A stretch of DNA of 64,000 bases, from NCBI GenBank assembly GCA_018651605.1, contig JABIDS010000009.1, forward strand, positions 19,966 through 83,965. Reading direction: 5' to 3'. How positions within the stretch are numbered: position 1 is the stretch's first letter; the number at the start of each line of letters is the position of its first letter. Under the pieces are notes generated by a model that had not been told where the DNA came from, ran no database searches, and was given only the letters and a program-made list of their open reading frames with translations. The translations under genes and the position numbers were made by a program. The stretch is from an archaeon (lineage in GTDB: Archaea; Nanobdellota; Nanobdellia; Pacearchaeales; GW2011-AR1). Below, in pieces: positions 143 through 63,031 of this stretch.

Positions 143-3100
143 ATGGTGTTGGAAAAAAAAGATGTGATTGGACATATAGAATTGACTTATATTTTGTTTG
201 TTCTTTTGTTTGTTTTGGTAGGGTTTTTGTTTAGTTTTGATTATGTTGTTGAGGAGTTTGTTAAGGAAGGTGTTGAGAGTGAGGGGGTTGGGGTTTTGGA
301 GGGTGGAGTGGAGGTTGGTGTTGGTTCTGAGGGTAGTGGTTTAGGGAGAGATGGTTTTGATGGTGATGAAAAGAAGAGTGGTTTTTTTAAGAGGATTTTT
401 GAGGGGTTGTTTGGTAAGGAGGAGGTTTTGTTTAGTCCTCCATCTATTGACTCTGTTTCTCCATTGAATGGATTATCAAAAACTGGTGAGGAACAAATAT
501 TTACTATAGAATATTCTGATCCTGAGGGATGGGAAGATTTAATCTATGGTTATGTTATTTTTGGAGCAGATTCATCTGATAGTAGGATTTTTTTAGAGTA
601 TAGGCATACTACAAAATTCGGATTAGTTAATGATAAAGGGATTATGACTTATCATTGTGATCCAGAATCAGATAATTTTTTATCTAATTCTTATGTAAAA
701 TTAGATTGTTCTAAATCTTTTGTTTCTGGTTCTGGAGATACTATGACTTTAACTTTAGCTTTAACATTTAAAGAGCCTTTTATTGGAAATTGGAAAATAC
801 TTTTAAGGACAAAAGATATTTCAGATAAAGATAAGGGTAAATGGGTGCCAATGGGGGATTGGGATGTTGAGGAAGGGGAGGTAATTATTGTTCCTGTTAA
901 ACCTCTTCCTCAAATGCGGGCACTTTATGGAGGGATTAATGAATTAAGAATTGGAGAGGGTGGGATAGATGCATACACTGATATGTTTAGGAGTTATGGA
1001 ATTAATACATTTATAACTAAACATTCTGGATTAAGAAATAATTTTATTTATGCTGATAGGTATCCAAATTCTCCTGAAAATTTTTATGAATCAATTTTAG
1101 ACCAGGCTGAGTGGGCTGAACAAAAAGGATTTGTTTTCTTTCCAATTATTGATTTTGTTCATAGGGTTAATGATCCTGATGATTTGGATGGGGATGAGAT
1201 TACAGTTTCTTCCATTACAGATAACTATGTTGTTTTTAGTGATGGTAGTGCGGGTTCACAAGTAACTCCTTTTGATGAGACTTATTGGGATTATTTAACT
1301 GATATTGCAGTGAGATTAGCAAGACTTTCAGAAAATTATGGCAAATATCGGGTTGATGGTTTAATGTTTGATTTTGAATTGTATAAAAGTGTAGAATTTG
1401 GAGAACCAAGAAAATTTGATAGGACTTTTGGTTTTGAAGATTCTACTTTTAATAATTATTTGGTTGATAGAGGTTTAGTTGAGTTGAATAGTCCTCCTAA
1501 GGAGTCTAATCAGAGGGCTGAAAGATATGATTGGTTAATAGATAATGGGAGATGGACTGATTATTATTCTTATCTTGAAGATACAATAGAAAAACTTGCA
1601 GAAAATATGAAGAGTGAGGTAAGAAAGGTTAATCCTGATTTCGTGTTAGGATTTTATCCTACGCCAGAGCCGCTTTATTTAATAGATATCCTTGATGGTT
1701 TTGGAAGTGAGGATGATCCTGCGGTTTTATTGGATACTTTTACTTATGCAATATCTTATATGGGATATTCTTATGGGGGAGAAGTAGTTCCAACAGGGAT
1801 TAGTCGTAATAGATTGCCTTCTGGTTATTTTGATGTAACTAAAAGATATCATCCTGAAAGAAATAAACCTGCGTATGCTTATTATCTTGGAGGAACAATA
1901 GCTGCTGCTTATGATCCTTTGGATTATGAAAATAAATTATATAATATTGGAAATGATGGAAATGGTTATTGGATTTATCAGGCTACTTTTTTTCTAAATG
2001 GTTTTAGGCCGGATTTACCGGGATGGGGATTACCTTGTAATAATGGGATTCGTTCTTTTAATTGTCCGAATGCTGATGCACATCAAGGTGCTGTTGACCA
2101 TTATTTGAATGAGATAAAAAATGCTAATTTAAGGTTGGGATGGGAGCCGTGTGTTCTTTCAAATGGAGGTGATGAAATATGTGATAATAAAGATAATGAT
2201 TGTAATGGAAAGGTTGATGATGGTGATTTGTGTGATAATGGAAATTATTGTGATGGTGTTGAAACTTGTTCTTCAGGAAGTTGTGTTGATGGTAGTGCTG
2301 TTGTATGTAATGATGGAATTGATTGTACTGATGATTTTTGTGATGAAGTAAATGATAAATGTGATGTAGATGAGTCTTCTTCTAGTTGTGGATGCCCTAA
2401 TGGTTTGGATTCAGAGTGTAGTAATGATGATGTTTGTGATGGTATTGAGAGTTGTAATACTGAAACTTTGGTTTGTATTGATGATGTGGATTTGGATTGT
2501 GATGGGAGTGATGTTTGTATTGATTATTCTTGTGACGCTGTTTTAGGTTGTCAAGAGAGTTTTAATAGTGCTGATTGTAATGATGGGGTTGATTGTACTT
2601 TGGGAGATAAATGTAATTTGGGTGATTGTTCTGGAACTCCTTATGATAGTGAGTGTGAATTTTTTTGGCAGTCTTGTAATCCTGTTTCTGGTTGTGAGCA
2701 GGCGAGTTGTAAGGATTGTAAGGATTGTGATACCTGGCTTGGTAGTTGTAGTTATAATGAATGTCATAATGAATGTGATTGGGGAGATGGTTGTTATTTT
2801 GAGAAGGATCCTTTGGGTGATGATTGTGTTCCATTAAGTGAAGGTTGTTCTTCTGTTGGTAGTTGTGGAGATTATTCTGTTGAGGAGTGTGTTAGTGATT
2901 TATGTGATAAGGCTCCTGTTGGTGGGAATGGTTGTGAGTTAGGTGAAAATAGGTTTGTAATTATGTCTTTTAGTCAGTATTTAGATGATTTTGCTGATGA
3001 ATGGCATCAATTAGTTCAACAGACATATATTCAAAATGAAAAAGTTATTAATAAGATATATATTGACGGTGTGTTAAGAAATACTGAAAAGTTTGAGGAT

Positions 3101-7975: not shown

Positions 7976-7989
7976 TTTGGTTGGGTTGG

Positions 7990-8370
7990 ATTTTCCACCA
8001 CCCACGGAAAGCCGGTTTCACCTTTCCCTTTCCGTGCCGTTGCAGTCTTAAAAAGTTGTTAGAGGGTTTATTTATTCAGAGGAGTTTTCTTTGGTTGTTG
8101 TTAAGAGATTGGTTTGGTTATAGATGGGAAAGGTGTTTTGTAGAGAGTTTAAGATTTAGGAGATTCAGAGAATTAAAAATTCTCTGACTTAGAAAAATAA
8201 GCTATAAGCCCTATTATTTTTCTAATTTCAGTATTTAGCGGAGCGCCCTGACTAAGTCGGGTGCGAGAGCGATATAAAATAAGTTATGAGCTGAAGGAGA
8301 ATGAATCATGGATGGAATAAATGAACCGAAAGAGAATGAATCTATGCGAGCGATAGTGAATGAATCTAAT
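7990..8370 (+). repeat. interspersed repeat family A, copy 1 (structured intergenic element, ~380 bp, contains 9-bp-arm palindrome and an inverted GAC-loop hairpin)
   Basis: Shares blocks (cGGAAAgccg; caCTTTCCCTTTCC; ttgttagaGGGTTTATTTATTCAGAGgag; ATAAGCCC; aaaTAAGTTATGAGC; GAATGAATCTAtGCGAGCG) with copies at 11735-11885 and 56345-56630. Palindrome cagagaatt/aattctctg at 8166-8188. Segment gcggagcgccctgactaagtcgggtgcgagagcg resembles the reverse complement of the hairpins at 45560 and 46799. Confidence 0.7.
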
Positions 8371-8377
8371 CTTTTAA

Positions 8378-11631: not shown

Positions 11632-11734
11632 TTTAAGGTATTTAATCGCTTTGCGATTAAGGTGTTATTTACTTTAATCATTTGGATTAAAGTTATTTTA
11701 AATTTTTAAGGATTGTTGTTGTGTGGTTTGTTTT

Positions 11735-11885
11735 GGGATCAATTCCCCTGGCGGAAAGCCGTGCTTCGCACTTTCCCTTTCCTCCCTTTTGTCTTGGTAA
11801 ATTGTTAAAGGGTTATTTTATTCAGAGAATCTATAGATTCTCTGACTCGTAAAAACGAGCCATAAGCCCCATCGTTTTTCCGATG
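11735..11885 (+). repeat. interspersed repeat family A, copy 2 (short version, with perfect 10-bp-arm palindrome)
   Basis: Blocks gcGGAAAGCCG, CACTTTCCCTTTCC, ttggtaaattgttaaaGGGTTATTTTATTCAGAG, palindrome cagagaatct/agattctctg (11823-11844), then gactcgtaaaaacgagccATAAGCCCC. Same order as in copy 1. Confidence 0.7.
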
Positions 11886-12069
11886 AAGATGAGTTTTCCT
11901 TGGTTTTTAAGGATTAATAGGTATTAGAAGGTTTATTTCATATCGATTTACCCTTTGAAAGGTGATTTAGTATATAAGTGTTGCGTTACTATTTTATAAT
12001 TAGTATATATTTGTGTTTGTGGAAGATTTGATATGTTTGGATAATCTTTTTATAATAGGTTTTCTTTAG

Positions 12070-20784: not shown

Positions 20785-21471
20785 ATGAATAAGTTTAAAA
20801 CCAAAAATTATGAAATAATAAGTAAAGGAAAAATTACTGAAAAAATTATAAAAATATGTAAGGATTATTATAAAACAAATAAATTATTTTTTAATAAAGA
20901 TGGACCTTATTTAAAAATTATAATAACAAATACTGAGGAGGAATTTAAGAGATTGACTAAAAAATTTTACTCTCCTTGGGTAAAAGGAGTAAGTTTGAAA
21001 GGAAATAGGGTAATTTTAAGGGGTCCTGAATTGTATAAAAAAACTTATAAAAAATTTAAGGGTACTCAAAATCCTCAATTGTTGTTGACCCATGAAATTA
21101 ATCATATCTTTGCTTATCAAATTAATTTATATCGTGGACCTTATTGGTTTACTGAAGGATTAGCAACATATGTTGCAAAACAAATTCCTGGAAAGAGTTA
21201 TAAGAAAAGTTCAAAAATAACTAAGGAAGAAGCAAAAAGATTGATGTTTTATAGATTTATGCATAAAAATTTGAAACAAGATATGTATGTGGTTCATTAT
21301 AAGGCAATTGATTATCTTATAAAAAAATTTGGTAAAAAGAAATTATTAAAGTTAGTTAATTCTTATTCTAGAAATCTAAATAAAAAAAAGTATTTGAATT
21401 TGTTTAATAAGATATATGGAATTTCCTATGGGGATTTTATTAATGAATTTATAAAAGATACTAATTTTTAG
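20785..21471 (+). CDS. hypothetical Lys-rich protein with HExxH (HEINH) motif, possible metallopeptidase
   Basis: 228 aa, A-rich coding strand unlike native genes. LLLTHEINHIFAY. Confidence 0.45.
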   Translation: MNKFKTKNYEIISKGKITEKIIKICKDYYKTNKLFFNKDGPYLKIIITNTEEEFKRLTKKFYSPWVKGVSLKGNRVILRGPELYKKTYKKFKGTQNPQLLLTHEINHIFAYQINLYRGPYWFTEGLATYVAKQIPGKSYKKSSKITKEEAKRLMFYRFMHKNLKQDMYVVHYKAIDYLIKKFGKKKLLKLVNSYSRNLNKKKYLNLFNKIYGISYGDFINEFIKDTNF

Positions 21472-23146: not shown

Positions 23147-23773
23147 ATGAATAATGATACAAACTATTGGATAGAAATGAGTAATTTCCCTGAATCATAT
23201 TCTCTTTTGTTCAGAGAAGAAGAAAGATTATTAGATAAATATATCGGAGATCATGCAAATGTATTAGATCTGGGGTGCGGAGATGGTAGATCCTTAAAAC
23301 AATTATCACAAAAAACAAAAAATTTAGTTGGAGTTGATCATGATAAAAAAATAGTAAAAAAAGCTAATAGGGATTTACCTAATATAAAGATAATTTATAG
23401 CGAAGGGACAAGCCTTCCATTTGATGATGGATATTTTGATAATGTTTTATGTTTAGGAACTTTTACTAATTTGGGTGATGAAAGGATTAAAGTTTTGAGT
23501 GAAATGAAAAGAGTTTTAGATAGAAATGGTTCAATAATTATAACTGCTTATTCTGAGGATGCATTAGAAGACAGGTTAAAATTGTATGGAAGTAGCAATG
23601 TTGAAATAGAAGAAATAAAACCAAATGGAACTGTTTTGTTTAGAGATTCTGTAGATTCAATTTCAGAACAGTTTTCAAGAAGTGAATTAGAAACTATAAT
23701 TAGTAAGGCAGGTCTTAAGATAATGGAACTTAATAAAGCTGGAATTGTATATTCTGGTGTTCTTGGAAAATAA
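23147..23773 (+). CDS. class I SAM-dependent methyltransferase
   Basis: Motif I VLDLGCGDGRS, post-I acidic residue, motif II/III region. A-rich, foreign-like composition. Confidence 0.7.
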   Translation: MNNDTNYWIEMSNFPESYSLLFREEERLLDKYIGDHANVLDLGCGDGRSLKQLSQKTKNLVGVDHDKKIVKKANRDLPNIKIIYSEGTSLPFDDGYFDNVLCLGTFTNLGDERIKVLSEMKRVLDRNGSIIITAYSEDALEDRLKLYGSSNVEIEEIKPNGTVLFRDSVDSISEQFSRSELETIISKAGLKIMELNKAGIVYSGVLGK

Positions 23774-23829
23774 AGATTAATTTATTTGAAACCAAAGATT
23801 AAAAAAGGCTTTTTTTCTTATTAATTTAT

Positions 23830-23904
23830 GGCTTGTTAGCTCAGTCTGGTTAGAGCACTAGACTCTTAATCTAGGTGTCGGGAGTTCAAATCTCCCACAG
23901 GCCA
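23830..23904 (+). tRNA. tRNA-Lys (anticodon CTT), 75 nt, no encoded CCA
   Basis: Manual cloverleaf: acceptor GGCTTGT/ACAGGCC; D arm GCTC-AGTCTGGTTA-GAGC; anticodon arm CTAGA-CTCTTAA-TCTAG; T arm GGGAG-TTCAAAT-CTCCC; discriminator A. Confidence 0.85.
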
Positions 23905-23975
23905 TTTATATCTTAACACTAAATCTAAGATGTAGAAAATTATGAAGGATTAAATACATTTAGATATTTTGTAGC

Positions 23976-24719
23976 CTACTTGATCTTCTCACCTGACTCC
24001 CAAAGCATATAAAAATATTTTTTTAAACTATCAGCTAAAGAATCATTTTTAATCCATAGTGATAAATATTTATCTCCTTCAACAATCCTTATAGTAACAT
24101 CACTATCATCAATAATAGTAAATTTTGTAGTAATAAGAGGAATTTTTCTAATTTCAGCATTAATTTTCTTCCAGACTTTTAATTTATCGCTAGTTGCCTC
24201 CTCATCACTTGTTAAAATCTTAATCTTGACATTATCTTTAGCATTTTTTTCATAAGAATCGATATGAGGTTTATATGTTGAAAGTTCAGAAATTGTCAAC
24301 CATTCCCTTCTAACATTCTTATGAAGACTCACAGAAAGATTAAGATAATTCTTATAACCTTCAACAATTTTTATTTTATCAATCACTTCATCCTTGTTAA
24401 TCATAGCAAGTTCCCCTAATTCATTCATAATCCTGTCAGAATTATTAATAAAATTATCTAGTTCTTTTTCTTTTTTTTCTTTTAAGTAATTAAAGATTAT
24501 CTTAGGTGCAACTGAAACGAACTTTTTCGGACTACCGTCATACTTTTTTACAAATCCTTTGGCAGTTAAAGACTCTAATACTGAATATATCTTACTATTT
24601 GGAATTAAAGATTCCTTTGATATCTTATATGCAGTTGATATCCCATTTTTTATTAAATATATGTATGCCTTTGATTCATTAGTTGTCAAACCAAATTGCT
24701 TTAATTTCTCCATAATCAT
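23976..24719 (-). CDS. TrmB-family transcriptional regulator
   Basis: N-terminal wHTH LKQFGLTTNESKAYIYLIKNGISTAYKISKESLIPNSKIYSVLESLTAKGFV matches the TrmB signature. 247 aa. Confidence 0.7.
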   Translation of the reverse strand: MIMEKLKQFGLTTNESKAYIYLIKNGISTAYKISKESLIPNSKIYSVLESLTAKGFVKKYDGSPKKFVSVAPKIIFNYLKEKKEKELDNFINNSDRIMNELGELAMINKDEVIDKIKIVEGYKNYLNLSVSLHKNVRREWLTISELSTYKPHIDSYEKNAKDNVKIKILTSDEEATSDKLKVWKKINAEIRKIPLITTKFTIIDDSDVTIRIVEGDKYLSLWIKNDSLADSLKKYFYMLWESGEKIK

Positions 24720-24772
24720 AACTACCCAAGGGGGTTACTATTATATAAATATTTCTATTTATTATTTTTTTC

Positions 24773-25462
24773 ATGTCAAAAAAACTTATAAACCAACATG
24801 AAGAATTAAAAGAACAAAATATACGTAAACCACTTTATCCTTGGGCTCCAGAAATATATAATAATATGATGAACCCAATTTCACTTGAACCAATTAAAGA
24901 AAGAGCATGGAATCACTTTCTTTGGAACCTTGGTTTAACAATTACCTGGCCTATTACTGCACCCGGTTCATTTATTTGGGCCATGCAAAGAAATCTAAGA
25001 GGTAAGGGGCATTTTTCTGATGGATATATTGTTCTAGGATGTTTAACAGCACCCTACATCTTAGCTACAGAATCTAAAAGTTTCTTAACCAAAAGAACTG
25101 TAGCATTAAAATTTTCAAATATTGATGAATTATTAGAAGAAGAAACTATTTTAACAAAACCTGATGGAATAAATCCGGGGATTCGTTTTAGTACAAGAGA
25201 TAGAGGTAAAGACAGCCCTTATAGATTTGGAGACTCTTCTTCGAATACTGATAGATATGGATTTCTAGATTTAATTTTCCCAGATAACTTAGCTTTAGAT
25301 GATTTTTCAGCAATGTATTATGCAACTGCTAATAGAGAAAATCCTGGAAATCTGTATTTAGATTGTGAATATTTTCTAAAAGTAAATCCAGATGATACAA
25401 GAAGACTTTATGAAGAATTTGAAAAAGTGAGAAAACCTGGAGCAAATGATTTAAGAAAATAA
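24773..25462 (+). CDS. hypothetical protein
   Basis: 229-aa ORF between the two tRNA-Lys copies. No recognisable motif. Confidence 0.45.
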   Translation: MSKKLINQHEELKEQNIRKPLYPWAPEIYNNMMNPISLEPIKERAWNHFLWNLGLTITWPITAPGSFIWAMQRNLRGKGHFSDGYIVLGCLTAPYILATESKSFLTKRTVALKFSNIDELLEEETILTKPDGINPGIRFSTRDRGKDSPYRFGDSSSNTDRYGFLDLIFPDNLALDDFSAMYYATANRENPGNLYLDCEYFLKVNPDDTRRLYEEFEKVRKPGANDLRK

Positions 25463-25603
25463 GTAAAGTTAGTACTATCAACTGTTTAAGATAATTTTTT
25501 CTAAAATAGACACTGTGTCATATATAATCCAAAACTCTTAATCCAACACATATATCAATAAGAAAATTAAAAAACCATAAATACCTCATAAATTCATACT
25601 CAT

Positions 25604-25678
25604 GGCTTGTTAGCTCAGTCTGGTTAGAGCACTAGACTCTTAATCTAGGTGTCGGGAGTTCAAATCTCCCACAGGCCA
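25604..25678 (+). tRNA. tRNA-Lys (anticodon CTT), second identical copy
   Basis: 75/75 identical to 23830-23904. Confidence 0.85.
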
Positions 25679-25782
25679 TTTATGGCAGAGATTTTCACTC
25701 CAAGGAGTTTCCATAAAGGATGACTCAAAGGTTATTTGAGCCGCAAATCTCATCAGGCCATTTAAATTAATGTTAATAATTA

Positions 25783-26229
25783 TTAATCTCTTGAAATTAT
25801 TGAATTGAAGTCTAAATCATATGTTTTTCTTTGAATAACCTCAGAAGTAGTATCCGGATGTTTCTCCCTTGCATCTGAATAAATTACAGATAATTGATTC
25901 ACAAATTCATCATAATTTAATACTATTTCAGAACCTATTATATTTGGTACTCCAGATACAAAAGATAAGAATTGAAAATGATTTCTATAATTATCATTTC
26001 CTCTCATAGCTTCTTCAAACTCATTAGGAGAATTTCCGATAGTATCAACTGATTGAAGGACTTTATGAGCAAATTGTCCCACTACGGTTTCAATAGATTC
26101 ATTAATCCTTCTAATCTCTGATTCTTGTTTTTGAGTTACCATACGGATAATCTTCAGATATTTACTATATAAATCCTTCGATTTTAACAAATATACTAAA
26201 AAATAATCACTGTGCCATATATAATCCAA
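25783..26229 (-). CDS. hypothetical protein
   Basis: 148-aa ORF immediately followed by a tRNA-Lys 3' fragment. Confidence 0.4.
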   Translation of the reverse strand: MDYIWHSDYFLVYLLKSKDLYSKYLKIIRMVTQKQESEIRRINESIETVVGQFAHKVLQSVDTIGNSPNEFEEAMRGNDNYRNHFQFLSFVSGVPNIIGSEIVLNYDEFVNQLSVIYSDAREKHPDTTSEVIQRKTYDLDFNSIISRD

Positions 26230-26231
26230 TA

Positions 26232-26273
26232 CTCTTAATCTAAGTGTCGGGAGTTCAAATCTCCCACGGGCTA
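26232..26273 (+). other. tRNA-Lys 3'-half fragment (anticodon loop to acceptor 3' strand; att-like remnant)
   Basis: ctcttaatctaagtgtcgggagttcaaatctcccacgggcta vs tRNA ctcttaatctaggtgtcgggagttcaaatctcccacaggcca. Preceded by a ~40-bp direct repeat (cactgtgYcatatataatccaaWactcttaatc) also present at 25507-25548. Confidence 0.75.
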
Positions 26274-26294
26274 TTTTTATTTTTAGAAATATTA

Positions 26295-27329: not shown

Positions 27330-27470
27330 GTAGCGGGGTGTTACTACTTGTTTTTTGTTGGATTTTGGGAGATTGGTTCGCCTTCGGCTCACGGCTTATT
27401 TTATGTCAGATTGGATGGCTTCGCCAACCCAATCTTCTAATTTTTTTGATAGTGTGAATATTTTATCTAG
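27330..27470 (+). ncRNA. candidate structured ncRNA / repeat (family B, copy 2): hairpin agattgg[ATGGCTTCGCCAAC]ccaatct + T-tract
   Basis: Collinear with 19362-19470: GGGGTGTT; TTGGTTCGCCTTCGGCTCAC; CTTATTTTATG; hairpin 27408-27435 with covarying stem; ctaattttttt. Confidence 0.5.
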
Positions 27471-31322: not shown

Positions 31323-31664
31323 ATGGGACGAGCTTATGCGTTTTTTGATTGTGGAGCTTCGAAAGAAGAAATAAATGAAGAATTGCCTTTTATTCGAAAA
31401 GCTGTTAAAACTCCTGAGAAGTTAGAGCTTTCTTTGAGTGAAGGTATTGATGAATTGGGTTTGGATGGTAAATTGAAAGATATTGCAGAAAATGAAGATA
31501 GACAATATACTTTGTGTGCAAATTATCTTTCAACAAATGAAAAAACTGCAGATGAATTAGCAGGTATTTTGAATCAAGTGTATCAATCTCCTTTAAATGA
31601 GGATGGACAATTTAAAGGAGCAATTGTTCAGGGAGATTGGGGAATGTATCATTCTAGATTTTAA
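31323..31664 (+). CDS. hypothetical protein
   Basis: 113-aa ORF. Confidence 0.4.
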   Translation: MGRAYAFFDCGASKEEINEELPFIRKAVKTPEKLELSLSEGIDELGLDGKLKDIAENEDRQYTLCANYLSTNEKTADELAGILNQVYQSPLNEDGQFKGAIVQGDWGMYHSRF

Positions 31665-38272: not shown

Positions 38273-38773
38273 ATGGAATCTAATCTTGCAACCATTTATG
38301 TATGGGAAAAAAGAAATTTGGATGTAGATAATTTATTATTTGTTCTTGGAGGTAAAAAGGCTCCAACATATACTGAACTTAAATCACAATTTGATCGTAA
38401 TCATAGAAAACCTATTTCACTTAGGCATTATTCAAATGAATTTGAAATTTATCAAAGTATAGCAGGAACCGAACCTCTTGTTAAAGATCCTCATTATACT
38501 GGAGATGTCTCTCCTTTTTTAACTTTTGATTTAGAAAAAAGATTGAAAAAATTAGAGTTGTCATTACCTGAACATGAACTTCAATTTAATCCTCGTGAAA
38601 GCAATGATTATAAAAGTGTAGATTTAGCTAGGGTTGGAGGATTAGCATTATATTTGGTTGAAAGTTTGAGTGCTAAGGATGTTTTAGCAGTTAATGGGAC
38701 AGATATTGAAAATGGGGTAATCTATGCTTCTCCTGGAATTGAAAGAAAAGTTTCTGATTCTATTCTTATTTGA
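38273..38773 (+). CDS. hypothetical protein (166 aa)
   Basis: A-rich coding strand (foreign-like). Flanked on both sides by copies of the attttatcRtgagRttatgagtggtt box. Confidence 0.45.
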   Translation: MESNLATIYVWEKRNLDVDNLLFVLGGKKAPTYTELKSQFDRNHRKPISLRHYSNEFEIYQSIAGTEPLVKDPHYTGDVSPFLTFDLEKRLKKLELSLPEHELQFNPRESNDYKSVDLARVGGLALYLVESLSAKDVLAVNGTDIENGVIYASPGIERKVSDSILI

Positions 38774-40273: not shown

Positions 40274-41032
40274 ATGGATAATATAGAATCTCAAACTAAG
40301 GCTGTTACAAATAAAATTACAACTGGAAGTCAGGATTTAAACATTTTTCTTCAAGGAGGTTATGAGAAAGGAATAATAACTTTACTTTATGGTCCTGCGG
40401 CCTCTGGAAAATCAAACATTGTAACATTGGCTGCATGTAATCAAGCTAAAAAAGATAAAAAGATAATCTTCATAGACACAGAAGGAAGTTTTTCAGTTGA
40501 TAGAGTTAATCAGATGTCAAATAATTTGCCAGAACAAATTTTAAAAAATATTATAATTCTTAAGCCAACTAATTTTAAGGAGCAACAAAATTCTTTTATA
40601 ACTTTAGCAAATGAATTAAAAAAATCAGAAAATATTGGGTTGATAATTGTGGATAGTATAACTATGCTTTATAGATTGGAATTTGCAGAAGCAAGAAAAA
40701 AGGGTTTGGAAGAAATACAAAATATAAATAGTGATTTGGCTAGGCAGATGAAGGCACTTTATGAAGTTGCGAGAAAACGAGATATTGCAGTTTTAGTAAC
40801 CTCTCAGATATATTCAGGATATCTTAGTGAAGAAGATTGGCCTGCAGGAAAGCAGGCTAAAACAAATGTTGTTGGCGGGGATATATTGAAGTATTGGAGT
40901 AAATGTATAATTGAATTGGAAAATAAAAATGGGCGGAAAAAAGCGATTATTCAGAAACATCGTTCATTGCCTGAGAAAACTTTGAACTTTGAGATTGTTA
41001 ATGAGGGTGTGCAGAAAAGGGGTTGGTTGTGA
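40274..41032 (+). CDS. RadB/KaiC-like RecA-superfamily ATPase
   Basis: Walker A LLYGPAASGKSNIVTLAA. Walker B LIIVDSITMLY. ~250 aa with RadB-like organisation. A-rich (foreign-like) composition. Confidence 0.65.
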   Translation: MDNIESQTKAVTNKITTGSQDLNIFLQGGYEKGIITLLYGPAASGKSNIVTLAACNQAKKDKKIIFIDTEGSFSVDRVNQMSNNLPEQILKNIIILKPTNFKEQQNSFITLANELKKSENIGLIIVDSITMLYRLEFAEARKKGLEEIQNINSDLARQMKALYEVARKRDIAVLVTSQIYSGYLSEEDWPAGKQAKTNVVGGDILKYWSKCIIELENKNGRKKAIIQKHRSLPEKTLNFEIVNEGVQKRGWL

Positions 41033-41351: not shown

Positions 41352-41753
41352 TTATTTTTTATCTAATGTATTTTCTAAAACATCATTTAATGGAGCTGTT
41401 TGAATTTCAGTTATTTTTTCTAAATAAGAATCAAATTTTAGTTGTGCTTTTTCTAAAATTTCTTTGCAAACTGGATTTGAAGAATCTGCACTGTATCTTG
41501 TTGTATTTTCTTCAACAGTTATTTCTATATACTCTAACGTTAAATCTTTTCCAGAACGATAGGAAATTATATTTCCATCTTCTTTAGTAGTTTTTAAGAA
41601 AGTATATCCAGAATCGGTACTAGAACAATTAATCTCTTCTCCTTCAATTTCTCCCTTAAAATGATATTCTAGATGATTTGAACTACATCCTGTTATACCT
41701 AAAACTAATGCTCCTGTTAATGCGAGTTTTCTTAAATTTCTTTTAAATTTCAT
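41352..41753 (-). CDS. putative secreted lipoprotein (lipobox-like LGITGCSS)
   Basis: N-terminal MKFKRNLRKLALTGALVLGITGC signal with a lipobox-like Cys. 133 aa. Confidence 0.5.
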   Translation of the reverse strand: MKFKRNLRKLALTGALVLGITGCSSNHLEYHFKGEIEGEEINCSSTDSGYTFLKTTKEDGNIISYRSGKDLTLEYIEITVEENTTRYSADSSNPVCKEILEKAQLKFDSYLEKITEIQTAPLNDVLENTLDKK

Positions 41754-47381: not shown

Positions 47382-47990
47382 TTGTATATATTAAAAAAAA
47401 TGATGGGCCTTCAAGATATATTTGATACAGGAAGGGATGCAAAATTACAAGCTTATTCTAGAGTTCCAATTGAAATTGACAATAGTTGGTATTTGGGAGA
47501 TCATGTAATAATTAATGGGGATGATAGAGGATTTAGAATTGCACTATATCCTAAAGGAGAATTAAGGACTGATGAAAGACCTCTTTTTTTAGGAAGAGAA
47601 CATAATGTAAGCAATCCAGAATTTTTTCTTCTAACAACATTTTCGACTGCTGATCCTGATGATGGATATACTCACAAGGAATATAATGTTTATACTGGAA
47701 GTGCCCCAATTTTAAAAAGAGGTAGTCATGTTAATTCAGGATTTGTTGAAGAAGAAATTCCTGAATTGAAAAATTTAAATACTATGGGCAAGGTAATTCC
47801 AGGTTATCAAACAGGAGTGGCAAAGATGTTTAAAATTAGTTTTTTCCCTTTTGAAAATGATGTGAGAAATTACGAAAAACAATCGGATATTTATATTCTG
47901 GGGTCAGAAGAAGAGCCATCTAGAGTTCTTGATGGAGATCCTAGTAGGTTCACAAAAATTCTAGATAATTTATTTTTTGAATTGGATTAA
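47382..47990 (+). CDS. hypothetical protein
   Basis: 202-aa ORF with A-rich composition. Confidence 0.45.
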   Translation: MYILKKMMGLQDIFDTGRDAKLQAYSRVPIEIDNSWYLGDHVIINGDDRGFRIALYPKGELRTDERPLFLGREHNVSNPEFFLLTTFSTADPDDGYTHKEYNVYTGSAPILKRGSHVNSGFVEEEIPELKNLNTMGKVIPGYQTGVAKMFKISFFPFENDVRNYEKQSDIYILGSEEEPSRVLDGDPSRFTKILDNLFFELD

Positions 47991-49675: not shown

Positions 49676-49996
49676 TCATTGTATTGCATCTAATTTAAAA
49701 TCCTCTATAACCTCATAAGATTTTTCTCTTAATTCTTCTGCTTGTTGGAGAGTTAAGGTAGCAGTAATCATTCCTAGATTTTTTAAAACACTATATTGTT
49801 GTTTGCTTACTCCTAATTCTTCTAAATCTTTAATAACAGGTTCTAAGGATTTTCCTATTCTATCCGATATCGAAACTCTTTCTTCAGGACTTTTTCTAAA
49901 ATAACCTTTGGGAGAATCAGTATTACCTTGGAGAGGTTCATGTTTCATCCAAATGGCATAATTCCTCTTTACATTTTGATCTAATGATTCTGGCAT
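49676..49996 (-). CDS. hypothetical protein
   Basis: 106-aa ORF. Confidence 0.4.
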   Translation of the reverse strand: MPESLDQNVKRNYAIWMKHEPLQGNTDSPKGYFRKSPEERVSISDRIGKSLEPVIKDLEELGVSKQQYSVLKNLGMITATLTLQQAEELREKSYEVIEDFKLDAIQ

Positions 49997-54174: not shown

Positions 54175-54310
54175 TTTTTTAACATGGCAAAAAATTTAAG
54201 AAAAAACAAATTTTTTGAAATCTTAAAATTTCAAAAAGAAAAATTTTAACATGGAAAAAATTAAAATTTTTAGTATATTAAAATTCCAAGAGGAAGAATT
54301 TTAACATGGC
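54175..54310 (+). repeat. tandem triplication (~60-bp period) of the minD start region ttttaacATGGCAAAAA, creating two micro-ORFs (MAKNLRKNKFFEILKFQKEKF; MEKIKIFSILKFQEEEF)
   Basis: aattttaacatggcaaaaa at 54178, aattttaacatggaaaaaa at ~54243 and aattttaacatggcaaaaa at ~54297. Each micro-ORF stop TAA overlaps the next ATG context (ttTAAcATGg). Confidence 0.6.
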
Positions 54311-55082
54311 AAAAACATATGCAATTATATCTGGAAAAGGAGGAGTCGGAAAGACGACGACAACTGTGAACTTAGGTCATGCTTTGAATGAGCTTGGTGA
54401 AGATGTTGTTATTGTGGATGCTAATTTGACTACTCCTAATGTTGGGATTCATCTTGGGGCGCCGATTGTTCCTATAAATTTGAATCATGTTTTGGATGGA
54501 CAGGCAAAATTAGAGGATGCGATTTATGAGCATGAGTCTGGGACTAAAATAATTCCTGCGTCGCTTTCTTTGAATGAAACTGAAAAAATTGATTATCAAA
54601 GATTAATAGATATTTCTAAGGGATTAAAGAAGATTACTAATCATGTTTTGATTGATTCTGCTGCAGGTCTTGGTGAGGAAGCTAAGGCTTCTATTTATGC
54701 TTGTGATGAAATTATTCTTGTTACTAATCCTGAGATGTCTGCTGTTACTGATGCTTTGAAGACGATTAAATTAGCAGAGGAGATTGATAAGCCTGTTCTG
54801 GGAGTTATAATCACGAGGTATAGAGGTAATAGAGTTGATATGTCTATTCCTAATATTAAAGAGATGTTAGAGGTTCCTATTTTGGGGATTATTCCTGAAA
54901 CTGATGATGTTAAGGAGTCTCATGTTATGAAGAATGCTGTGATTCATACGCATCCTAGAAGTGAAGCTGCTCGAACTTATGTTAATAGTGCTAGAAAGAT
55001 TTTGGGTGAGGATATTAGGGTTGAGACTCCTTTGAAGTTGGGTGTTTTTGGAAAGATGATGAGAGGAATGGGGTTGAGATGA
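54306..55082 (+). CDS. minD: MinD/ParA-family P-loop ATPase
   Basis: Deviant Walker A IISGKGGVGKTTTTVNLG. 258 aa. Confidence 0.85.
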   Translation: MAKTYAIISGKGGVGKTTTTVNLGHALNELGEDVVIVDANLTTPNVGIHLGAPIVPINLNHVLDGQAKLEDAIYEHESGTKIIPASLSLNETEKIDYQRLIDISKGLKKITNHVLIDSAAGLGEEAKASIYACDEIILVTNPEMSAVTDALKTIKLAEEIDKPVLGVIITRYRGNRVDMSIPNIKEMLEVPILGIIPETDDVKESHVMKNAVIHTHPRSEAARTYVNSARKILGEDIRVETPLKLGVFGKMMRGMGLR

Positions 55083-55108: not shown

Positions 55109-55363
55109 ATGTTGAGAAAGTATAGGGCACAAATAGATAAGATTGATTCTAAAATTGTTAAATTATTGAGTCAGCGTGTGAAAGTTAGTTTAGAGGTTGG
55201 TAAATTGAAGAAGGATAAAGGTGTTAAGGTTGTTGATATGGCTCGTGAGAGAGAGGTTTTTGATAAAGTTGTTAAAGAAGGGATTAAGATGGGGTTGGGG
55301 GAAAATTATATAAAGAAAGTTTTTAAGATGATAATAAGAGATTCTCGGAGGAATCAGAAATAA
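55109..55363 (+). CDS. chorismate mutase (AroQ-type), 84 aa
   Basis: LRKYRAQIDKIDSKIVKLLSQRVKVSLEVGKLKKDKG…DMAREREVF matches the AroQ pattern (LR..ID.ID..I..LL..R…..IG..K…….D..RE..V). Confidence 0.55.
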   Translation: MLRKYRAQIDKIDSKIVKLLSQRVKVSLEVGKLKKDKGVKVVDMAREREVFDKVVKEGIKMGLGENYIKKVFKMIIRDSRRNQK

Positions 55364-55695
55364 TGGATAATGTAAAATTTGAAGATTGGATGAAGCTTGA
55401 TTTGAGGGTAGCGGAGATTTTGGAGGCTGATGAAGTTGAGGGTGCTGATAAGTTGGTTAAATTAAAAGTTGATATGGGGACTGAAAGTCGTGTTTTGATG
55501 GCTGGTTTGAAGAAACATTATAGTAAAGATGATTTGATTGGAAAGAGAGTTATTGTTTTTGCTAATTTGGAGCCGAGGGTGATTAGAGGTGTTGAGTCGA
55601 AAGGAATGGTTTTGGCTGCTGTTAATGATGATGGTAGTGAGGTTAAGTTGTTGAGTCCTAGTGGGGCGGTGGATTTGGGAAGTAGAGTTAGTTAG
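55363..55695 (+). CDS. standalone tRNA-binding protein (Trbp111/CsaA/EMAPII-like OB fold)
   Basis: DLRVAEILEADEVEGADKLVKLKVDMGTESRVLMAGL…GKRVIVFANLEPRVIRGVESKGMVLAA matches the MetRS C-terminal / Trbp111 domain. Confidence 0.75.
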   Translation: MDNVKFEDWMKLDLRVAEILEADEVEGADKLVKLKVDMGTESRVLMAGLKKHYSKDDLIGKRVIVFANLEPRVIRGVESKGMVLAAVNDDGSEVKLLSPSGAVDLGSRVS

Positions 55696-55714: not shown

Positions 55715-56332
55715 TTGTTTGTATTTGTTAAGATGAATATTAAAAAAGGTGAGTGGTTATTGATTTTATTTAATTTTATTTATGTAATTAGTTTTTTGAT
55801 TTATTATATTAAGATTGAGAATTATGAGTTTCTCTCCTATATTTTTATTATGTTGGTTTTGTTTTCTGTTATTGCTTTGACATTAAAAAAGACTGGTTTT
55901 AATTATTTTGTTTTGTGGGGTCTGTCTATTTGGGGTTTGTTGCATATGGCAGGAGGAAGTTTAAAAGTAGGTAATGAGGTTTTGTATGCATTTAGAATTA
56001 TTCCTATTTGGGTTACTGAGAATTTTTATGTTTTAAGATTTGATCAGTTTGTGCATTTTTATTTGTATTTTGTGATGGTTTTTGTAATTTGGGGATTGTT
56101 GAAGAAAGAGTTGAAAGTTGAAGGGTGGAATAAGTTTGTTGTTTATGCTTTGATTTGTTTAGGTAGTATTGGTATTGGTGGTTTGAATGAAGTTATAGAA
56201 TTTATTATGGTTTTGGTTTTGGCTGAGACAGGTGTTGGAGGATATTATAATACTGCGTGGGATATTGTGTTTAATACTTTGGGGGCTTTATTGGGTGTTT
56301 TGGTTTTGATGTTTGTGAATAGGAAGCGATGA
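55715..56332 (+). CDS. hypothetical polytopic membrane protein
   Basis: 205 aa with ≥5 hydrophobic helices. Confidence 0.5.
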   Translation: MFVFVKMNIKKGEWLLILFNFIYVISFLIYYIKIENYEFLSYIFIMLVLFSVIALTLKKTGFNYFVLWGLSIWGLLHMAGGSLKVGNEVLYAFRIIPIWVTENFYVLRFDQFVHFYLYFVMVFVIWGLLKKELKVEGWNKFVVYALICLGSIGIGGLNEVIEFIMVLVLAETGVGGYYNTAWDIVFNTLGALLGVLVLMFVNRKR

Positions 56333-56344
56333 TTTTCTGTATTT

Positions 56345-56630
56345 CCCTCCCCACGAAAATCCGTTCCTTGCGTCACTTTCCCATTTTCTTCCTTTTGTTT
56401 TGGTAAGTTGTTAGAAGGTTTATTTTTTCAGAGGAGTTTTTCTTTTTGGTTTCGTTTGAGTGCTAAGTTGGTTTTGTGTAGATTTTAAAAGTTGGGAGAT
56501 TTTAAGAAAATTGGGTTAACGAAGTTTCCTAATTTGACATAAAATAAGTTATGAGCGGAGCGAATGAAACTATGGGAGAAGGATAAGTGAGTGAAGCGAA
56601 TGAATCTAAGCGAGCGGAGCGAGCGTTGAA
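56345..56630 (+). repeat. interspersed repeat family A, copy 3
   Basis: Shares cacGAAAAtccg; CACTTTCCCaTTttcttCC; ttggtaagTTGTTAGAAGGTTTATTTTTTCAGAGGAGTTTTTC; gttttgtgtagatttt…gggagatt; ATAAAATAAGTTATGAGCGGAGCG; GAATGAATCTAAGCGAGCG with copy 1, in the same order. Confidence 0.7.
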
Positions 56631-56644
56631 CTATTAATTTTTAT

Positions 56645-56690
56645 TGATTCCCCCTCATCCCCCCAATCTAAATCGGGGTTTGTTAATATT
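56645..56690 (+). repeat. diverged duplicate of the dGTPase gene 3' end (direct repeat with 57346-57395)
   Basis: ttgattccccctcatccccccaatctaaatcggggtttgt vs ttgattccctttcatcagcccaatctaaatcaggatttgt. On the minus strand it encodes …NPDLDWGDEGES vs genuine …NPDLDWADERES. Confidence 0.65.
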
Positions 56691-56749
56691 ATCATTACTA
56701 AGTAGTAACTTATAGATAAATTTATAAAGCCTATAATTGTCATAATTTT

Positions 56750-57298
56750 ATGACAAAGAATTATTTTGATAGGTCTCAAGAAGTAAGAAGAGAGATAGAA
56801 TCTTCTCCAAGGATAATGGAAATTTTGAAAAATCATCTTACAGGTATAAAAAAATCTAAATTTATTAGTGGGGGTATGCATCATAGGATTTATCGTATAG
56901 GATGTTTAGAGAGTGGTTTAGGAATAGCAATGAGACATAATCTTTCTGCAGGAAGTAGAGGGATAATTACTAAAGGTATTTTAAGTGGATATGAATCTTA
57001 TGCGATAGATGCAGAAAATTATGAGTTTGAAGGTAAAAGAGTCTCACAATTTTGTGTTGGTGTTGCAAATATTAAAAATGAAATAAGAAATCCTAGTGGA
57101 TTTCAGGGATATATTGGAAATGCAGGCTTATTAGTAGAAGATTTTACAAATGGTGGAACAAGAGAATTAGAAATTAGTACTGCTGATGAATTATGGGCAA
57201 GTAATCCTAGGGAATTAATTCATGTAGACTTAGGTAGTGATTTTGCAGACTTGGATGATTTTCAATATATGGCAGATTCTAATATGATTTTATTATAA
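56750..57298 (+). CDS. hypothetical protein (182 aa) on a putative small insertion flanked by dGTPase 3'-end direct repeats
   Basis: ORF with composition unlike native genes. Bracketed by the ~45-bp direct repeats at 56645 and 57346. Confidence 0.45.
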   Translation: MTKNYFDRSQEVRREIESSPRIMEILKNHLTGIKKSKFISGGMHHRIYRIGCLESGLGIAMRHNLSAGSRGIITKGILSGYESYAIDAENYEFEGKRVSQFCVGVANIKNEIRNPSGFQGYIGNAGLLVEDFTNGGTRELEISTADELWASNPRELIHVDLGSDFADLDDFQYMADSNMILL

Positions 57299-57332
57299 TT
57301 GTGAATGAAAGATATTTAATAATTCATTTAAC

Positions 57333-58373
57333 TTATTTTATCTCTTTTGATTCCCTTTCATCAGCCCAATCTAAATCAGGATTTGTGATATCTATATTTT
57401 TGTTTTTTAGAATGGCTATTGAATCTGAGAAACCAAATCCTTTTATGTCCTGCATTGTGCATTTTCCTTTTTCGTTTATTGCTCTTCCTAATATGTCGAC
57501 TTGTTTGTCGGTTAGCATGAGGAATGCGGCTTCAGGTGTGGCGTGTTTGAATTTTGGTTCTGTTGAAAGGAATTCGTAAGCTTTTTCTAGGATTACTTTT
57601 TTTATGCTGTGGTCAATTGCTTTGTAGACTTTTTTGTAGAGGAATGTTCTTGTTTTTTTGAAATTTTGATATATTGGACTATCTTTGAATTCTACTCTTT
57701 GTTTTAATTTGCTTTCTTGGATTAAGGCTTGTAGAACTTTGTAGGTTCTTTGGTCTTGGTTTTGTCCTAGTGATGTTATGAAGTCTGGGAGGTCTTGAGG
57801 GTTAAGAAATTTGTATCTCATTGCATCGTTGAGGTCTGAAAATGTGTATGCTATTTTGTCTGCAAACATTACTGCAGAGTATTCGTTTGGTAAGTTTGGG
57901 TCTGTATGTAAGTCTATTGAGTTTGTTCTTGAATGGTGGAGAATTCCTTGAAGTGTTTCAAAAGTTAAGTTTAATCCTTTTCCATGGTCTTTTTCTAAAT
58001 GTTGTGCAACTACTACGCTTCCTATTGGGTGATTGAAAGGTTTGTTTAGGATTTTTGTTAGCATTTCTTCTCCTAAGTGTCCGTAAGGTGTGTGTCCTAT
58101 GTCATGGGCTGCTGATATTGCTTGGCATAGAGAGGTGTTGAGGTTTAAGTGTTCTGAGATAGTTGTTGCAATTGCCAGTACTTCTCCTGTGTGGGTTAAT
58201 CTTGTTCTTGTGTAGACGTTTCTTGGGAGGCTGATGACTTGTGTTTTATCTGCTAAACGTCGGTATGATTTACAATGTAAGATTCTTGTGAAGTCTTCTA
58301 AGAAGGGGTCTTTGATTTTTATTGGGTAGGATTCGGGGTGGCGTCGGCCTTTTGTGTGAGTGAGTTTTTTCAT
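57333..58373 (-). CDS. HD-domain dGTP triphosphohydrolase-like protein
   Basis: HD motif AAHDIGHTPYGHLGEE typical of the dGTPase (Dgt) family. 346 aa. Confidence 0.75.
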   Translation of the reverse strand: MKKLTHTKGRRHPESYPIKIKDPFLEDFTRILHCKSYRRLADKTQVISLPRNVYTRTRLTHTGEVLAIATTISEHLNLNTSLCQAISAAHDIGHTPYGHLGEEMLTKILNKPFNHPIGSVVVAQHLEKDHGKGLNLTFETLQGILHHSRTNSIDLHTDPNLPNEYSAVMFADKIAYTFSDLNDAMRYKFLNPQDLPDFITSLGQNQDQRTYKVLQALIQESKLKQRVEFKDSPIYQNFKKTRTFLYKKVYKAIDHSIKKVILEKAYEFLSTEPKFKHATPEAAFLMLTDKQVDILGRAINEKGKCTMQDIKGFGFSDSIAILKNKNIDITNPDLDWADERESKEIK

Positions 58374-58439: not shown

Positions 58440-59852
58440 TTATATTTTCTTAAACAAAATCTCGGATTTCTTAATTGATTTTATTTTAATTGGTTTTTCT
58501 ATTTGGTCTAAGCTTAGTTTAAAGTTTAGTTGTTTTGCTATTTTTTCTGACGTTTCTGGAATGAATGGGTAAAGTATGATTGTTATTGCTTTTATTGAGT
58601 CTATTAGTTCATAGAGAATTTTTTGGTCTTTTGTTTCCCATGGTTTCTTTTTTTGGATGTATTCATTGCAGATGTCTATGAAAGTGAAGATTTCATTTAG
58701 GGCTTTGTCTAATTCGTAGTTATCTATTAGTTTTATTATATTTTTTAGTTTTAGTTTTTTTAGGAGTGTGTTTTCAGTTTGTGTTGGTTTGTATTTTTCT
58801 GCTAATGCTGTTGTTCTGCTTATTAGGTTTCCTAATTTGTTTGCAAGTTCGTTGTTATGTCTGTCTATTAAGATCTCTTCTGAATAGTCTGAGTCTTCGA
58901 ATATTGAACATCTTAATAATGAGTATCGAACTGTGTCTGAGGAGTATTTCTCTGCGAGTTCTATTGGGTCAATTATATTTCCTAATGATTTAGACATTTT
59001 TTTTCCTTTGATGTTTAAGTATCCGTGGACTAAGAGTTTTTTTGGTAGAGGGTAGTTTAGGGAGAGTAGCATTCCAGGCCAGATTACTGAATGGAACCAG
59101 TTTATTCCTTTCCCGATTACATGAATGTCTGCAGGCCAGTTGCTTTCTGCTCCAGAGATATAATTAATTAGTGCGTCGAACCAAACATATATTTTGAATT
59201 CTTTGTCTATTGGATTGTCTATTCCCCAAGTGAGGTTTGTTCGTGAGACACATAAGTCTCTTAATTCTTCGTTTTCTAATCTTGATAGGATTTCGTTTTT
59301 TCTTTTTTCTGGGACTATGTATGTTTTTATGAATTTTATTATCTGTTTTTGGTATTTGCTTAGTTTGAAGAAATATGCGTCTTCTGAAATGTGTTCTGGA
59401 GCTTTATTGTGTTCTGGGCATTTTCCATCTACTAGTTCTTTTTCTGTTATGAAAGATTCGCAACCTAAGCAGTAGTTTCCTTCGTATTTTCCTTTATAGA
59501 TTTCTCCTTTGTCGTAAACTGCTTTAAAGATTTCTTGCGATTTGTTTTTGTGTTCTTTTTCTGTTGTTCTTATGAATCTTGAGTAATTTATGTTTAGTTT
59601 TTTGCAAAGTTCTATGAAAACTTTTGAGTTTTTGTCTACGAATTTTTGTGTTTCTATGTTTGCTTCTTTTGCAGCTTCTGCGTTTTTTTGTGCGTTTTCG
59701 TCTGTTCCTGTTAAGAAAAATGATGGGTTTGAGTTTAGTTGTTGGTATCTGTTTAGGGCGTCTGCTATAACTTTTTCAAAGGCGTGTCCGATATGTGGTT
59801 TGCCGTTGACATAATCTATTGCAGTTGTAATGTAAAATTTTTTGGGTTTCAT
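58440..59852 (-). CDS. metG: methionyl-tRNA synthetase (core only, no C-terminal tRNA-binding domain)
   Basis: FYITTAIDYVNGKPHIGHA. Zinc knuckle CLGCE…CPEHN. KMSKS as GKKMSKSLGN. 470 aa. Confidence 0.9.
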   Translation of the reverse strand: MKPKKFYITTAIDYVNGKPHIGHAFEKVIADALNRYQQLNSNPSFFLTGTDENAQKNAEAAKEANIETQKFVDKNSKVFIELCKKLNINYSRFIRTTEKEHKNKSQEIFKAVYDKGEIYKGKYEGNYCLGCESFITEKELVDGKCPEHNKAPEHISEDAYFFKLSKYQKQIIKFIKTYIVPEKRKNEILSRLENEELRDLCVSRTNLTWGIDNPIDKEFKIYVWFDALINYISGAESNWPADIHVIGKGINWFHSVIWPGMLLSLNYPLPKKLLVHGYLNIKGKKMSKSLGNIIDPIELAEKYSSDTVRYSLLRCSIFEDSDYSEEILIDRHNNELANKLGNLISRTTALAEKYKPTQTENTLLKKLKLKNIIKLIDNYELDKALNEIFTFIDICNEYIQKKKPWETKDQKILYELIDSIKAITIILYPFIPETSEKIAKQLNFKLSLDQIEKPIKIKSIKKSEILFKKI

Positions 59853-62296: not shown

Positions 62297-62371
62297 TCTC
62301 TTTTTATTTAATAAGAATTTGTTTATTAAAAAGGTTTTGTTTTAAATACAAACATTTAAATCCCTAAAAAA

Positions 62372-63031
62372 TTGTTTATAATTATGTTTGATAAGAAATG
62401 TTCTAAATGTGATAGTAAGATTAAGGGCGATTATGATTTTTGTCCTTTTTGTGGTTGTAATTTGAAATCTGAGTTTCATAAGGATGATTATGGGTTGTTG
62501 GGGCGGAGTGATGTTGTTGAGCCAAAACCGGAGGATTTGTTGAGTGGTTTGGGTAATTTGTCTATTGGGAAGATTTTGAAGGGTGCGATGAAAGAGTTGC
62601 CTTCTATGATGAAAATGCTTGAAAAGCAGATGGGTGATATGAATAATAATTCTAAGGGTAAGGGGAATGGTTTGAATGTTCAGTTTTTTGTTGATGGTAA
62701 GAAAGTTAATCCTATGAAGAATCAGAAACTTAAGAGTGTGAAGAGATTGCCTCAGGAGTTGTCGAAGGAAAAATTGAAGATGTTGTCTGAATTTCCAAAG
62801 GTTGAGCCAAAGTCTGAGGTTCGGAGATTGTCTGGGAGAATTATTTATAATATTTCTGTTCCAGGAGTTAGGGATATTAATGATATTTTTATAAACCAAT
62901 TGGAGAATTCTGTTGAGGTGAAAGCTCTTGGAGAGGATAAGGTTTATTCGAAGATTTTGAAATTGAATTTGCCTGTTAAGGGATATGATTTGATTAATGG
63001 GAATTTGGTTTTGGAATTTGGAGAGAGGTAA
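62372..63031 (+). CDS. zinc-ribbon protein with possible C-terminal Hsp20/alpha-crystallin-like domain
   Basis: N-terminal CSKCDSK…CPFCGC. C-terminal region (…IIYNISVPGVRDINDIFINQLENSVEVKAL…KLNLPVKGYDLINGNLVLEF) resembles an ACD beta-sandwich. Weak. Confidence 0.45.
   Translation: MFIIMFDKKCSKCDSKIKGDYDFCPFCGCNLKSEFHKDDYGLLGRSDVVEPKPEDLLSGLGNLSIGKILKGAMKELPSMMKMLEKQMGDMNNNSKGKGNGLNVQFFVDGKKVNPMKNQKLKSVKRLPQELSKEKLKMLSEFPKVEPKSEVRRLSGRIIYNISVPGVRDINDIFINQLENSVEVKALGEDKVYSKILKLNLPVKGYDLINGNLVLEFGER

Follow-up and report, generated by a model that had tools for sequence, protein, structure and literature searches.

The 3' end of dgt, a gene encoding a dGTPase-like protein with an HD domain, was analyzed in a stretch of 64,000 nucleotides (nt) of contig JABIDS010000009.1 (positions 1-64000, hereafter the window), whose source is a small low-GC, Woesearchaeota-like DPANN archaeon; in public records its proteins carry the label 'archaeon' or Woesearchaeota. 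The locus is best read as a scar left when DNA was inserted once into this gene end: the last 19 codons of dgt occur twice, once as the working end of the gene (R2) and once as a displaced copy (R1), and both copies bracket a single gene, the 182-amino-acid open reading frame (ORF) ORF182, an arrangement which the initial annotation of the stretch had described for the last ~45 bp (Table 1). As an integration scar in which the gene end is duplicated and an integrase is missing, it is typical, and its kind is already known. The strand bias of the whole window is more unusual than the scar, and so is the family of the inserted gene.

Duplication of the dgt 3' end

The repeat search aligned positions 56634-56683 with 57337-57386 over 50 nt without a gap (80% identity, spacing 703), and the top-scoring ungapped core (56644-56683 vs 57347-57386) has 34 matches in 40 positions. 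Over the full 19-codon region 42 of the 57 positions match, gapped similarity extends over 56626-56696 vs 57327-57398 and the flanks outside are dissimilar (p = 0.46 and p = 0.84), the repeat being limited to the last 19-20 dgt codons and at most 6-8 nt. The overall identity of R1 and R2 is 74-85%. The duplication claimed in the initial annotation is well supported by the core, but the 38 matches in 45 positions given there come to 35 of 46 on recounting the same interval.

To assess the similarity statistically, the final 63 nt of dgt were scored against the 1.5 kb that follow the gene, and this target was randomised with a first-order Markov model that keeps the dinucleotide statistics. The duplication scores 25, whereas the randomised targets average 9.5 and never exceed 16.5, so that none of 2000 shuffles reaches 25 (Gumbel p ~1e-8). 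Of the 59 genes of the window, dgt alone is followed by such a copy of its own 3' end, and the second-highest score is 15.5. At least four independent assemblies, made from other samples (L002, L003, L004 and L018), contain both junctions at 99.8-100% identity, which rules out a misassembly. A short repeat in an AT-rich genome may suggest chance similarity or an assembly artefact, but the shuffling result, the agreement in frame with a protein motif, the uniqueness among the 59 genes and the junctions in four assemblies leave a negligible probability for either.

At the protein level R1 still codes for the dgt C-terminus on the minus strand, as had been noticed initially: it reads IILTNPDLDWGDEGESIKI, which is identical in 13 of 19 residues to IDITNPDLDWADERESKEI, residues 327-345 of the working gene (tblastn E = 8e-4, six frames of the whole window). 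The same search revealed no other duplicated dgt segment. In the dgt clade the C-terminal motif ID-x-T-[ND]-PDL-x-W-(G) is strongly conserved and followed by a variable tail, and the duplication starts exactly at the start of this motif. R1 holds the entire clade motif in frame (TNPDLDWG) with the consensus WG, whereas R2 has WA, and R1 therefore derives from a genuine dgt end. Its reading frame continues to a stop at 56606, inside an adjacent intergenic repeat (family A, see below). At the working end, the last dgt codon (57336-57338) and the stop codon (57333-57335) follow directly on R2.

Within the 13-codon core the copies differ by three synonymous and two non-synonymous codon changes. 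R2 matches the dgt end of a relative with 75% dgt identity at 27 of 33 positions, as read from the alignment, which equals its agreement with R1 (27 of 33), and R1 has not lost its C: over 57 nt there are 14 C in R1 vs 13 in R2, where intergenic regions have 11% C and the plus strand 10.7%. R1 also carries two of the only three plus-strand C-runs of at least 5 in the window, namely the only C6 and a C5. Together this is weak evidence that the copies had diverged before joining, which would mean that the incoming DNA brought its own version of the gene end. The idea that R1 is richer in C than R2 holds for the 40-nt core only and counts as no more than weak evidence against a long neutral decay.

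Several further candidates were rejected. No residual dgt similarity was found inside the insert, which speaks against a decayed second copy of dgt beneath ORF182, and the 16-nt inverted repeat I5 (56536-56551 / 57329-57344) is at chance level. Neither an Rfam family nor a significant RNA or DNA structure was detected at R1/R2. An alternative left junction at the inner edge of R1 in L001 (ENA ERZ4200974 NODE_15553) turned out to be a chimeric contig tip: its positions 1-32 are the 3' end of a bacterial GTP-dependent phosphoenolpyruvate carboxykinase (PEPCK) gene, as in the JGI sequences L024-L026, and the fusion point adjoins a 16-mer, TATCATTACTAAGTAG, common to the PEPCK end and window positions 56691-56706.

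Table 1. Coordinates of the features at the dgt locus and of further window features.
Feature	Position	Strand	Description
MinD	54306-55082	+	ORF listing and domain matches
Chorismate mutase (CM_2)	55109-55363	+	between MinD and tRNA_bind
tRNA_bind	55363-55695	+	ORF listing and domain matches
DUF2238 membrane-protein gene	55715-56332	+	conserved left border of the variable slot
Family A copy 3	56340-56630	+	abuts R1
R1	56636-56692	-	displaced non-functional copy of the last 19 dgt codons; reads IILTNPDLDWGDEGESIKI
Bracketed insert, 646 nt	56693-57338		single gene
Promoter-like block	56720-56749	+	kept in L007 and L008
ORF182	56750-57298	+	182 amino acids, 549 nt; cargo; convergent with dgt
dgt	57333-58373	-	dGTPase-like HD-domain gene, 346 amino acids, intact; insertion target
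R2	57339-57395	-	working dgt 3' end, residues 327-345; reads IDITNPDLDWADERESKEI
Longest identical run in R1/R2, 13 nt, CCCAATCTAAATC	56662-56674 = 57365-57377		read from the alignment
MetRS (methionyl-tRNA synthetase)	58440-59852	-	ORF listing and domain matches
Family A copies flanking the rad50-mre11 operon	7976-8377, 11632-12069		direct orientation; similarity to copy 3
Family A partial inverted copy	27377-27438	-	similarity
Genes with A-rich third positions	20785-21471, 23147-26229, 31323-31664, 38273-38773, 40274-41032, 41352-41753, 47382-47990, 49676-49996, 62342-62899		third-position composition

The insertion site in relatives

A comparison with related genomes had been proposed, with the same arrangement in all relatives as the outcome that would speak against an insertion. 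In four relatives with 58-75% dgt identity the dgt end is single and ORF182 is missing beside it, so the arrangement is not common to all. In L010/L011 (dgt 75% identical) the order is dgt, an unrelated 141-amino-acid ORF, DUF2238, tRNA_bind and MinD; in L009 (68%) dgt is followed by a 111-amino-acid membrane ORF and tRNA_bind, and in L017 (58%) by 98 nt and tRNA_bind. L014 (61%) has other downstream genes and does not show the dgt-tRNA_bind synteny. In the three syntenic relatives, the slot from dgt to tRNA_bind or DUF2238 thus holds an unrelated ORF or nothing, and on this genome comparison ORF182 is lineage-specific at the dgt site. The locus also marks the interval between dgt and tRNA_bind as a gene-turnover hot spot of this lineage.

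The chorismate mutase gene gives a second local rearrangement around dgt. In the 75% relative its neighbours are MetRS and dgt, and it is located on the strand opposite to MinD (L010 5467-5736; L013 617-886), compared with 55109-55363 in the window.

Origin of the insertion

We consider it probable, judging from the sequence arrangement, that the dgt end recombined with a look-alike on incoming DNA; an integrase-mediated event is part of this assumption and is put forward more tentatively. The incoming DNA, in the simplest case a small circle, would have carried ORF182 together with its promoter and, as the look-alike, a sequence resembling the last ~19 dgt codons. This look-alike would have recombined with the chromosomal dgt end within the ~57-70-nt similarity, either by a site-specific crossover of the type known from attachment (att) sites or by a single homologous (Campbell-type) crossover, and if a site-specific recombinase acted, the 13-nt identical run CCCAATCTAAATC is the candidate crossover core. 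The resulting order would be family A - R1 - ORF182 - R2 - dgt body, in which R2 keeps dgt at full length including the ID-x-TNPDLDW motif and R1 is left as a dead stub beyond the cargo. The succession of target end, cargo, target end and intact gene is the expected product of one reciprocal recombination with a look-alike on a circular molecule; the circular intermediate, the type of recombination and the choice of the native copy are inferred. As the insert now holds ORF182 only and no recombinase gene, the recombinase gene would have been deleted later or the cassette would have been mobilised in trans. The initial annotation had proposed site-specific integration followed by loss of the integrase. 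This proposal is partly supported: the gene-end-derived repeat and the single lineage-specific gene agree with it, but no integrase was found in the window ORFs searched.

A number of results weigh against recombination with an incoming look-alike. There is no integrase or transposase in the 23 window ORFs scanned by Pfam, and a phmmer search of all window ORFs, with a tyrosine integrase as query, yielded no credible match. No dgt-end mimic was found in IMG/VR, nor any virus, plasmid or provirus with ORF182 or such a mimic, and neither a circular or excision junction nor an empty site in a close strain was found. The identity of R1 and R2 is only 74-85%, the data do not decide which dgt end is the native one, and the direct repeats around a homologue of ORF182 elsewhere (L007, see below) share no core with R1/R2. 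A transposon or insertion sequence element is not indicated either, since a transposase is missing and the sole flanking inverted repeat is the above-mentioned I5. Moreover, the target duplications known from transposition are far shorter than ~57 nt.

Homology-facilitated illegitimate recombination, which has been described in naturally transformable bacteria, or a repair-mediated capture could have produced the locus without a site-specific recombinase, and we regard this as rather unlikely, though as the most serious competitor. A linear fragment from a related archaeon, with part of dgt and ORF182 downstream of it, would have undergone homologous recombination within dgt at one end, and its other end would have been joined by an illegitimate event just upstream of the last 19 codons of the recipient, so that R2 is donor-derived and R1 recipient-derived. 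The footprint would be identical, the missing recombinase gene is accounted for, and a divergence of R1 and R2 before joining fits their origin from donor and recipient. Family A copy 1 abuts the rad50 stop codon in the same way as copy 3 abuts R1, which mildly favours R1 as the native dgt terminus, and the neighbourhood is prone to rearrangements in this lineage, as seen for the moved chorismate mutase gene. As in the known process, a short homologous stretch would have anchored foreign DNA, and the recipient end may be duplicated or retained. However, no donor genome with an ORF182 homologue beside dgt is known, and the five contexts seen all differ. The native strand-biased composition extends over R2 as well as the remainder of dgt, without any sign of a mosaic, and the join would have to coincide exactly with the point where the conserved C-terminal motif begins.

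Less likely, and in our opinion improbable, is an origin in situ, in which ORF182 was already located downstream of dgt and a tandem duplication of ~703 nt, comprising ORF182 and the dgt end, was followed by deletion of one ORF182 copy, or in which a perfect target duplication of ~57 nt has decayed. The arrangement of repeat, insert and repeat with a period of 703 is compatible with it, as is an R1 without detectable function or RNA structure, but two steps are required and ORF182 is absent from the site in relatives. In addition, a neutrally decaying R1 should drift towards a low C content, yet it has the only C6 run of the window and a C5 run, and the composition of ORF182 has not reached equilibrium, which speaks against a period as long as a divergence of 26% would require. 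For the target-duplication version, 57 nt is far beyond the known range, and terminal inverted repeats are missing. Recombination of the dgt end with an incoming look-alike is the explanation we prefer.

Comparison with known systems

The locus resembles integrative elements and genomic islands that use the 3' ends of tRNA, tmRNA or protein genes, restore the gene end on insertion and are flanked by the attachment sites attL and attR, in that direct repeats derived from the gene end flank foreign DNA and the target remains intact. With ~45-57 nt the repeat is comparable in length to the 3'-half repeat of tRNA-Lys in the same window (~48 nt, see below), and the 13-nt run is a possible core. The differences are the missing integrase, the single cargo gene of 549 nt, the repeats of only 74-85% identity, and that neither excision nor a cognate element was found. 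Tyrosine-recombinase elements which insert into protein-gene ends are represented, for example, by the dusA-specific integrases (PMC4482086).

The att-like repeats around a short cargo without integrase are also reminiscent of cis-mobilisable elements (CIMEs), with a mobilisation in trans being possible in principle. In the literature on streptococcal integrative and conjugative elements (ICEs), CIMEs are att-flanked remnants of integrative elements without recombination genes. They are, however, defined by a known parental ICE or integrative and mobilisable element with its integrase, and no such partner is known for the ORF182 insert.

The window itself contains duplications of tRNA-Lys(CTT). 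Two copies (23829-23905 and 25603-25679) are identical including 5 nt of 3' flank and have unrelated flanks beyond, and a third copy (26231-26278) comprises only the 3' half from the anticodon loop to the 3' end (~48 nt, 3 mismatches). The copies bracket islets with a TrmB-like regulator (23976-24719) and ORF229 (24773-25462) and with ORF148 (25783-26229). No other part of the window is so little adapted to the strand bias in its composition as these islets, and they contain no integrase. Because these textbook gene-end duplications surround islets of one or two genes, they support the view that gene-end-targeted integration operates in this genome. A much bolder idea, to which we assign a small probability on the basis of sequence comparison, is that ORF182-type genes and the tRNA-Lys islets are non-autonomous single-gene cassettes of DPANN archaea, with their own promoter and a mimic of a host 3' end, whose insertion would depend on an unlinked recombinase acting in trans. 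If true, such cassettes would amount to a minimal gene-shuttling system in genomes otherwise almost without mobile elements, and the 39-nt repeats around the L007 homologue would be a second instance.

The locus is a concrete and datable footprint of a reduced DPANN genome gaining a single orphan gene. The insertion hit the tail of a conserved gene, and the duplication of the tail let the host gene survive. We see the value of the locus mostly as an example and as an entry to a search for recombinases in DPANN metagenome-assembled genomes (MAGs).

The inserted gene ORF182

The insert starts with 27 nt ahead of the promoter-like block; the promoter is followed by ORF182 itself, a spacer of 34 nt and the dgt stop with the last codon. 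A TATA-like sequence, TTTATAAA, is located at 56721-56728, 22-29 nt upstream of the ATG, which suggests that the ORF182 mRNA is leaderless. The two closest homologues are 63% (L007) and 62% (L008) identical at the protein level. The DNA similarity to both loci starts ~30 nt upstream of the ATG and stops at the stop codon, and the mobile unit is therefore the promoter together with the ORF.

The atypical composition ascribed to ORF182 initially is real, but only moderate: A at third codon positions (A3) is 0.40 vs a window mean of 0.25 (z = 1.7), with G at 0.11 and C at 0.02. In the homologues A is 0.46 and C 0.05-0.07, and in resident plus-strand genes A is 0.18, G 0.22 and C 0.013. This intermediate position between homologues and residents indicates that ORF182 is partly ameliorated to the local strand bias.

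Searches of ORF182, as suggested at the outset, gave no match in Pfam, NCBIfam, PHROGs or PADLOC; comparison of its profile with PDB sequences yielded only N-lobes of PAK kinases at E 0.1-0.4. The family comprises 74 cluster representatives at E <= 1e-3, and in the annotated collection 13 proteins from Woese-, Pace- and Undinarchaeales. No relatives were found in JGI metagenome contigs, IMG/VR, GenBank phages or PLSDB plasmids. The family is patchily distributed and, as far as these searches reach, rare in DPANN archaea and previously undescribed. The broad family alignment was too diverse for locus scans. The idea that three window ORFs of 182 amino acids (starting at 18235, 21657 and 56750) are paralogues was rejected, as they share only 21-22% identity.

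The family alignment revealed a GxGxxN loop and a strand whose last residue is an invariant Arg; the helix after it has a conserved Glu, and the sequence LLVEDLTxGG and two invariant Asp (D131 and D160) are present as well. AlphaFold gave a confident model with 13 sequences (predicted local distance difference test, pLDDT, 91; predicted template modelling score, pTM, 0.89), whereas 3 sequences led to a pLDDT of 32. With this model, the top Foldseek matches in PDB and BFVD were all protein kinases, APH, RIO or PRPK, although weak (E 0.02-0.2; template modelling score 0.24-0.40). With moderate confidence we predict a mini protein-kinase-like fold, so that the locus points to an undescribed small family of putative kinase-like proteins. 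Of the features expected for a kinase, the Gly-rich loop, the Glu, D131 and D160 are present, Arg62 takes the place of the Lys and the C-lobe is truncated. In the comparison with minimal members of the protein-kinase-like superfamily (Bud32/PRPK, RIO, APH), the similarities of the family are the Gly-rich loop, an invariant basic residue at the strand end, the helix Glu and a hinge-like LLVEDLTxGG. The differences are that the family proteins are only ~170-180 amino acids long, have Arg for the canonical Lys and lack a recognisable HRD or DFG loop, and all matches to the superfamily are weak (E 0.02-0.4).

In four other DPANN genomes the ORF182 homologues lie in four unrelated neighbourhoods without mobility genes. 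The L007 homologue from a Woesearchaeota MAG (GCA_016180165.1) is bracketed by a significant direct repeat of 39 nt (79% identity). The repeats (2502-2580 and 3504-3562) enclose the homologue and a GC-rich upstream segment of 350 nt, and they are built from a ~20-nt unit (ACGATTCTCC..TCTTGAAA), with a score of 19 vs a shuffle maximum of 12.5.

Family A repeats

Family A copy 3 lies in the intergenic stretch of 417 nt between DUF2238 and ORF182. That it adjoins the insertion, as had been stated initially, is correct, and it resembles both copies at the rad50-mre11 operon (Table 1). Whether family A commonly neighbours such insertions had been proposed as a check, and the outcome was negative: among the 59 window genes there is no general association of family A with gene-end duplications. 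The repeats are intergenic, ~250-350 nt long and have conserved blocks such as AAGTTGTTAGAGGGTTTATTTATTCAGAGGAG and TTTGACATAAAATAAGTTATGAGC, and they gave no match in Rfam. A related segment is present in L009 (1656-1700). The region upstream of the L007 homologue was also considered as family A and was rejected as unrelated, despite a common GAGCG(A/G)AGCGAA motif.

Strand composition of the window

The product of dgt matches Pfam HD with 38 bits (cut-off 22) and the NCBIfam dGTPase models with E 6e-68, yet stays below the equivalog cut-offs, and 'dGTPase-like' is therefore the safe name for it. Like all other genes of the window, dgt is located in a region with an extreme violation of intra-strand parity, the plus strand having 27.7% A, 10.7% C, 21.9% G and 39.7% T. 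Read on this strand, the third codon positions of every gene in either orientation have 0.5-0.65 T and 0.00-0.08 C, and in plus-strand genes C amounts to 1.3% vs 22% G. This looks like the mitochondrial-type bias caused by single-strand deamination, but in a cellular genome, and a literature search for this type of strand bias found no description. The relatives L009, L010, L011 and L014 are also strand-skewed, and their dgt is located on the opposite (G/T-rich) strand.

About one fifth of the window genes have A-rich and G-poor third positions like ORF182 (A3 >= 0.35; Table 1), and these may be a class of recent acquisitions which are still unadapted to the strand bias. At 143-7975 the window contains a giant ORF of 2610 amino acids, which is built of many diverged Cys-rich repeat modules and harbours several repeat families of 40-220 nt.

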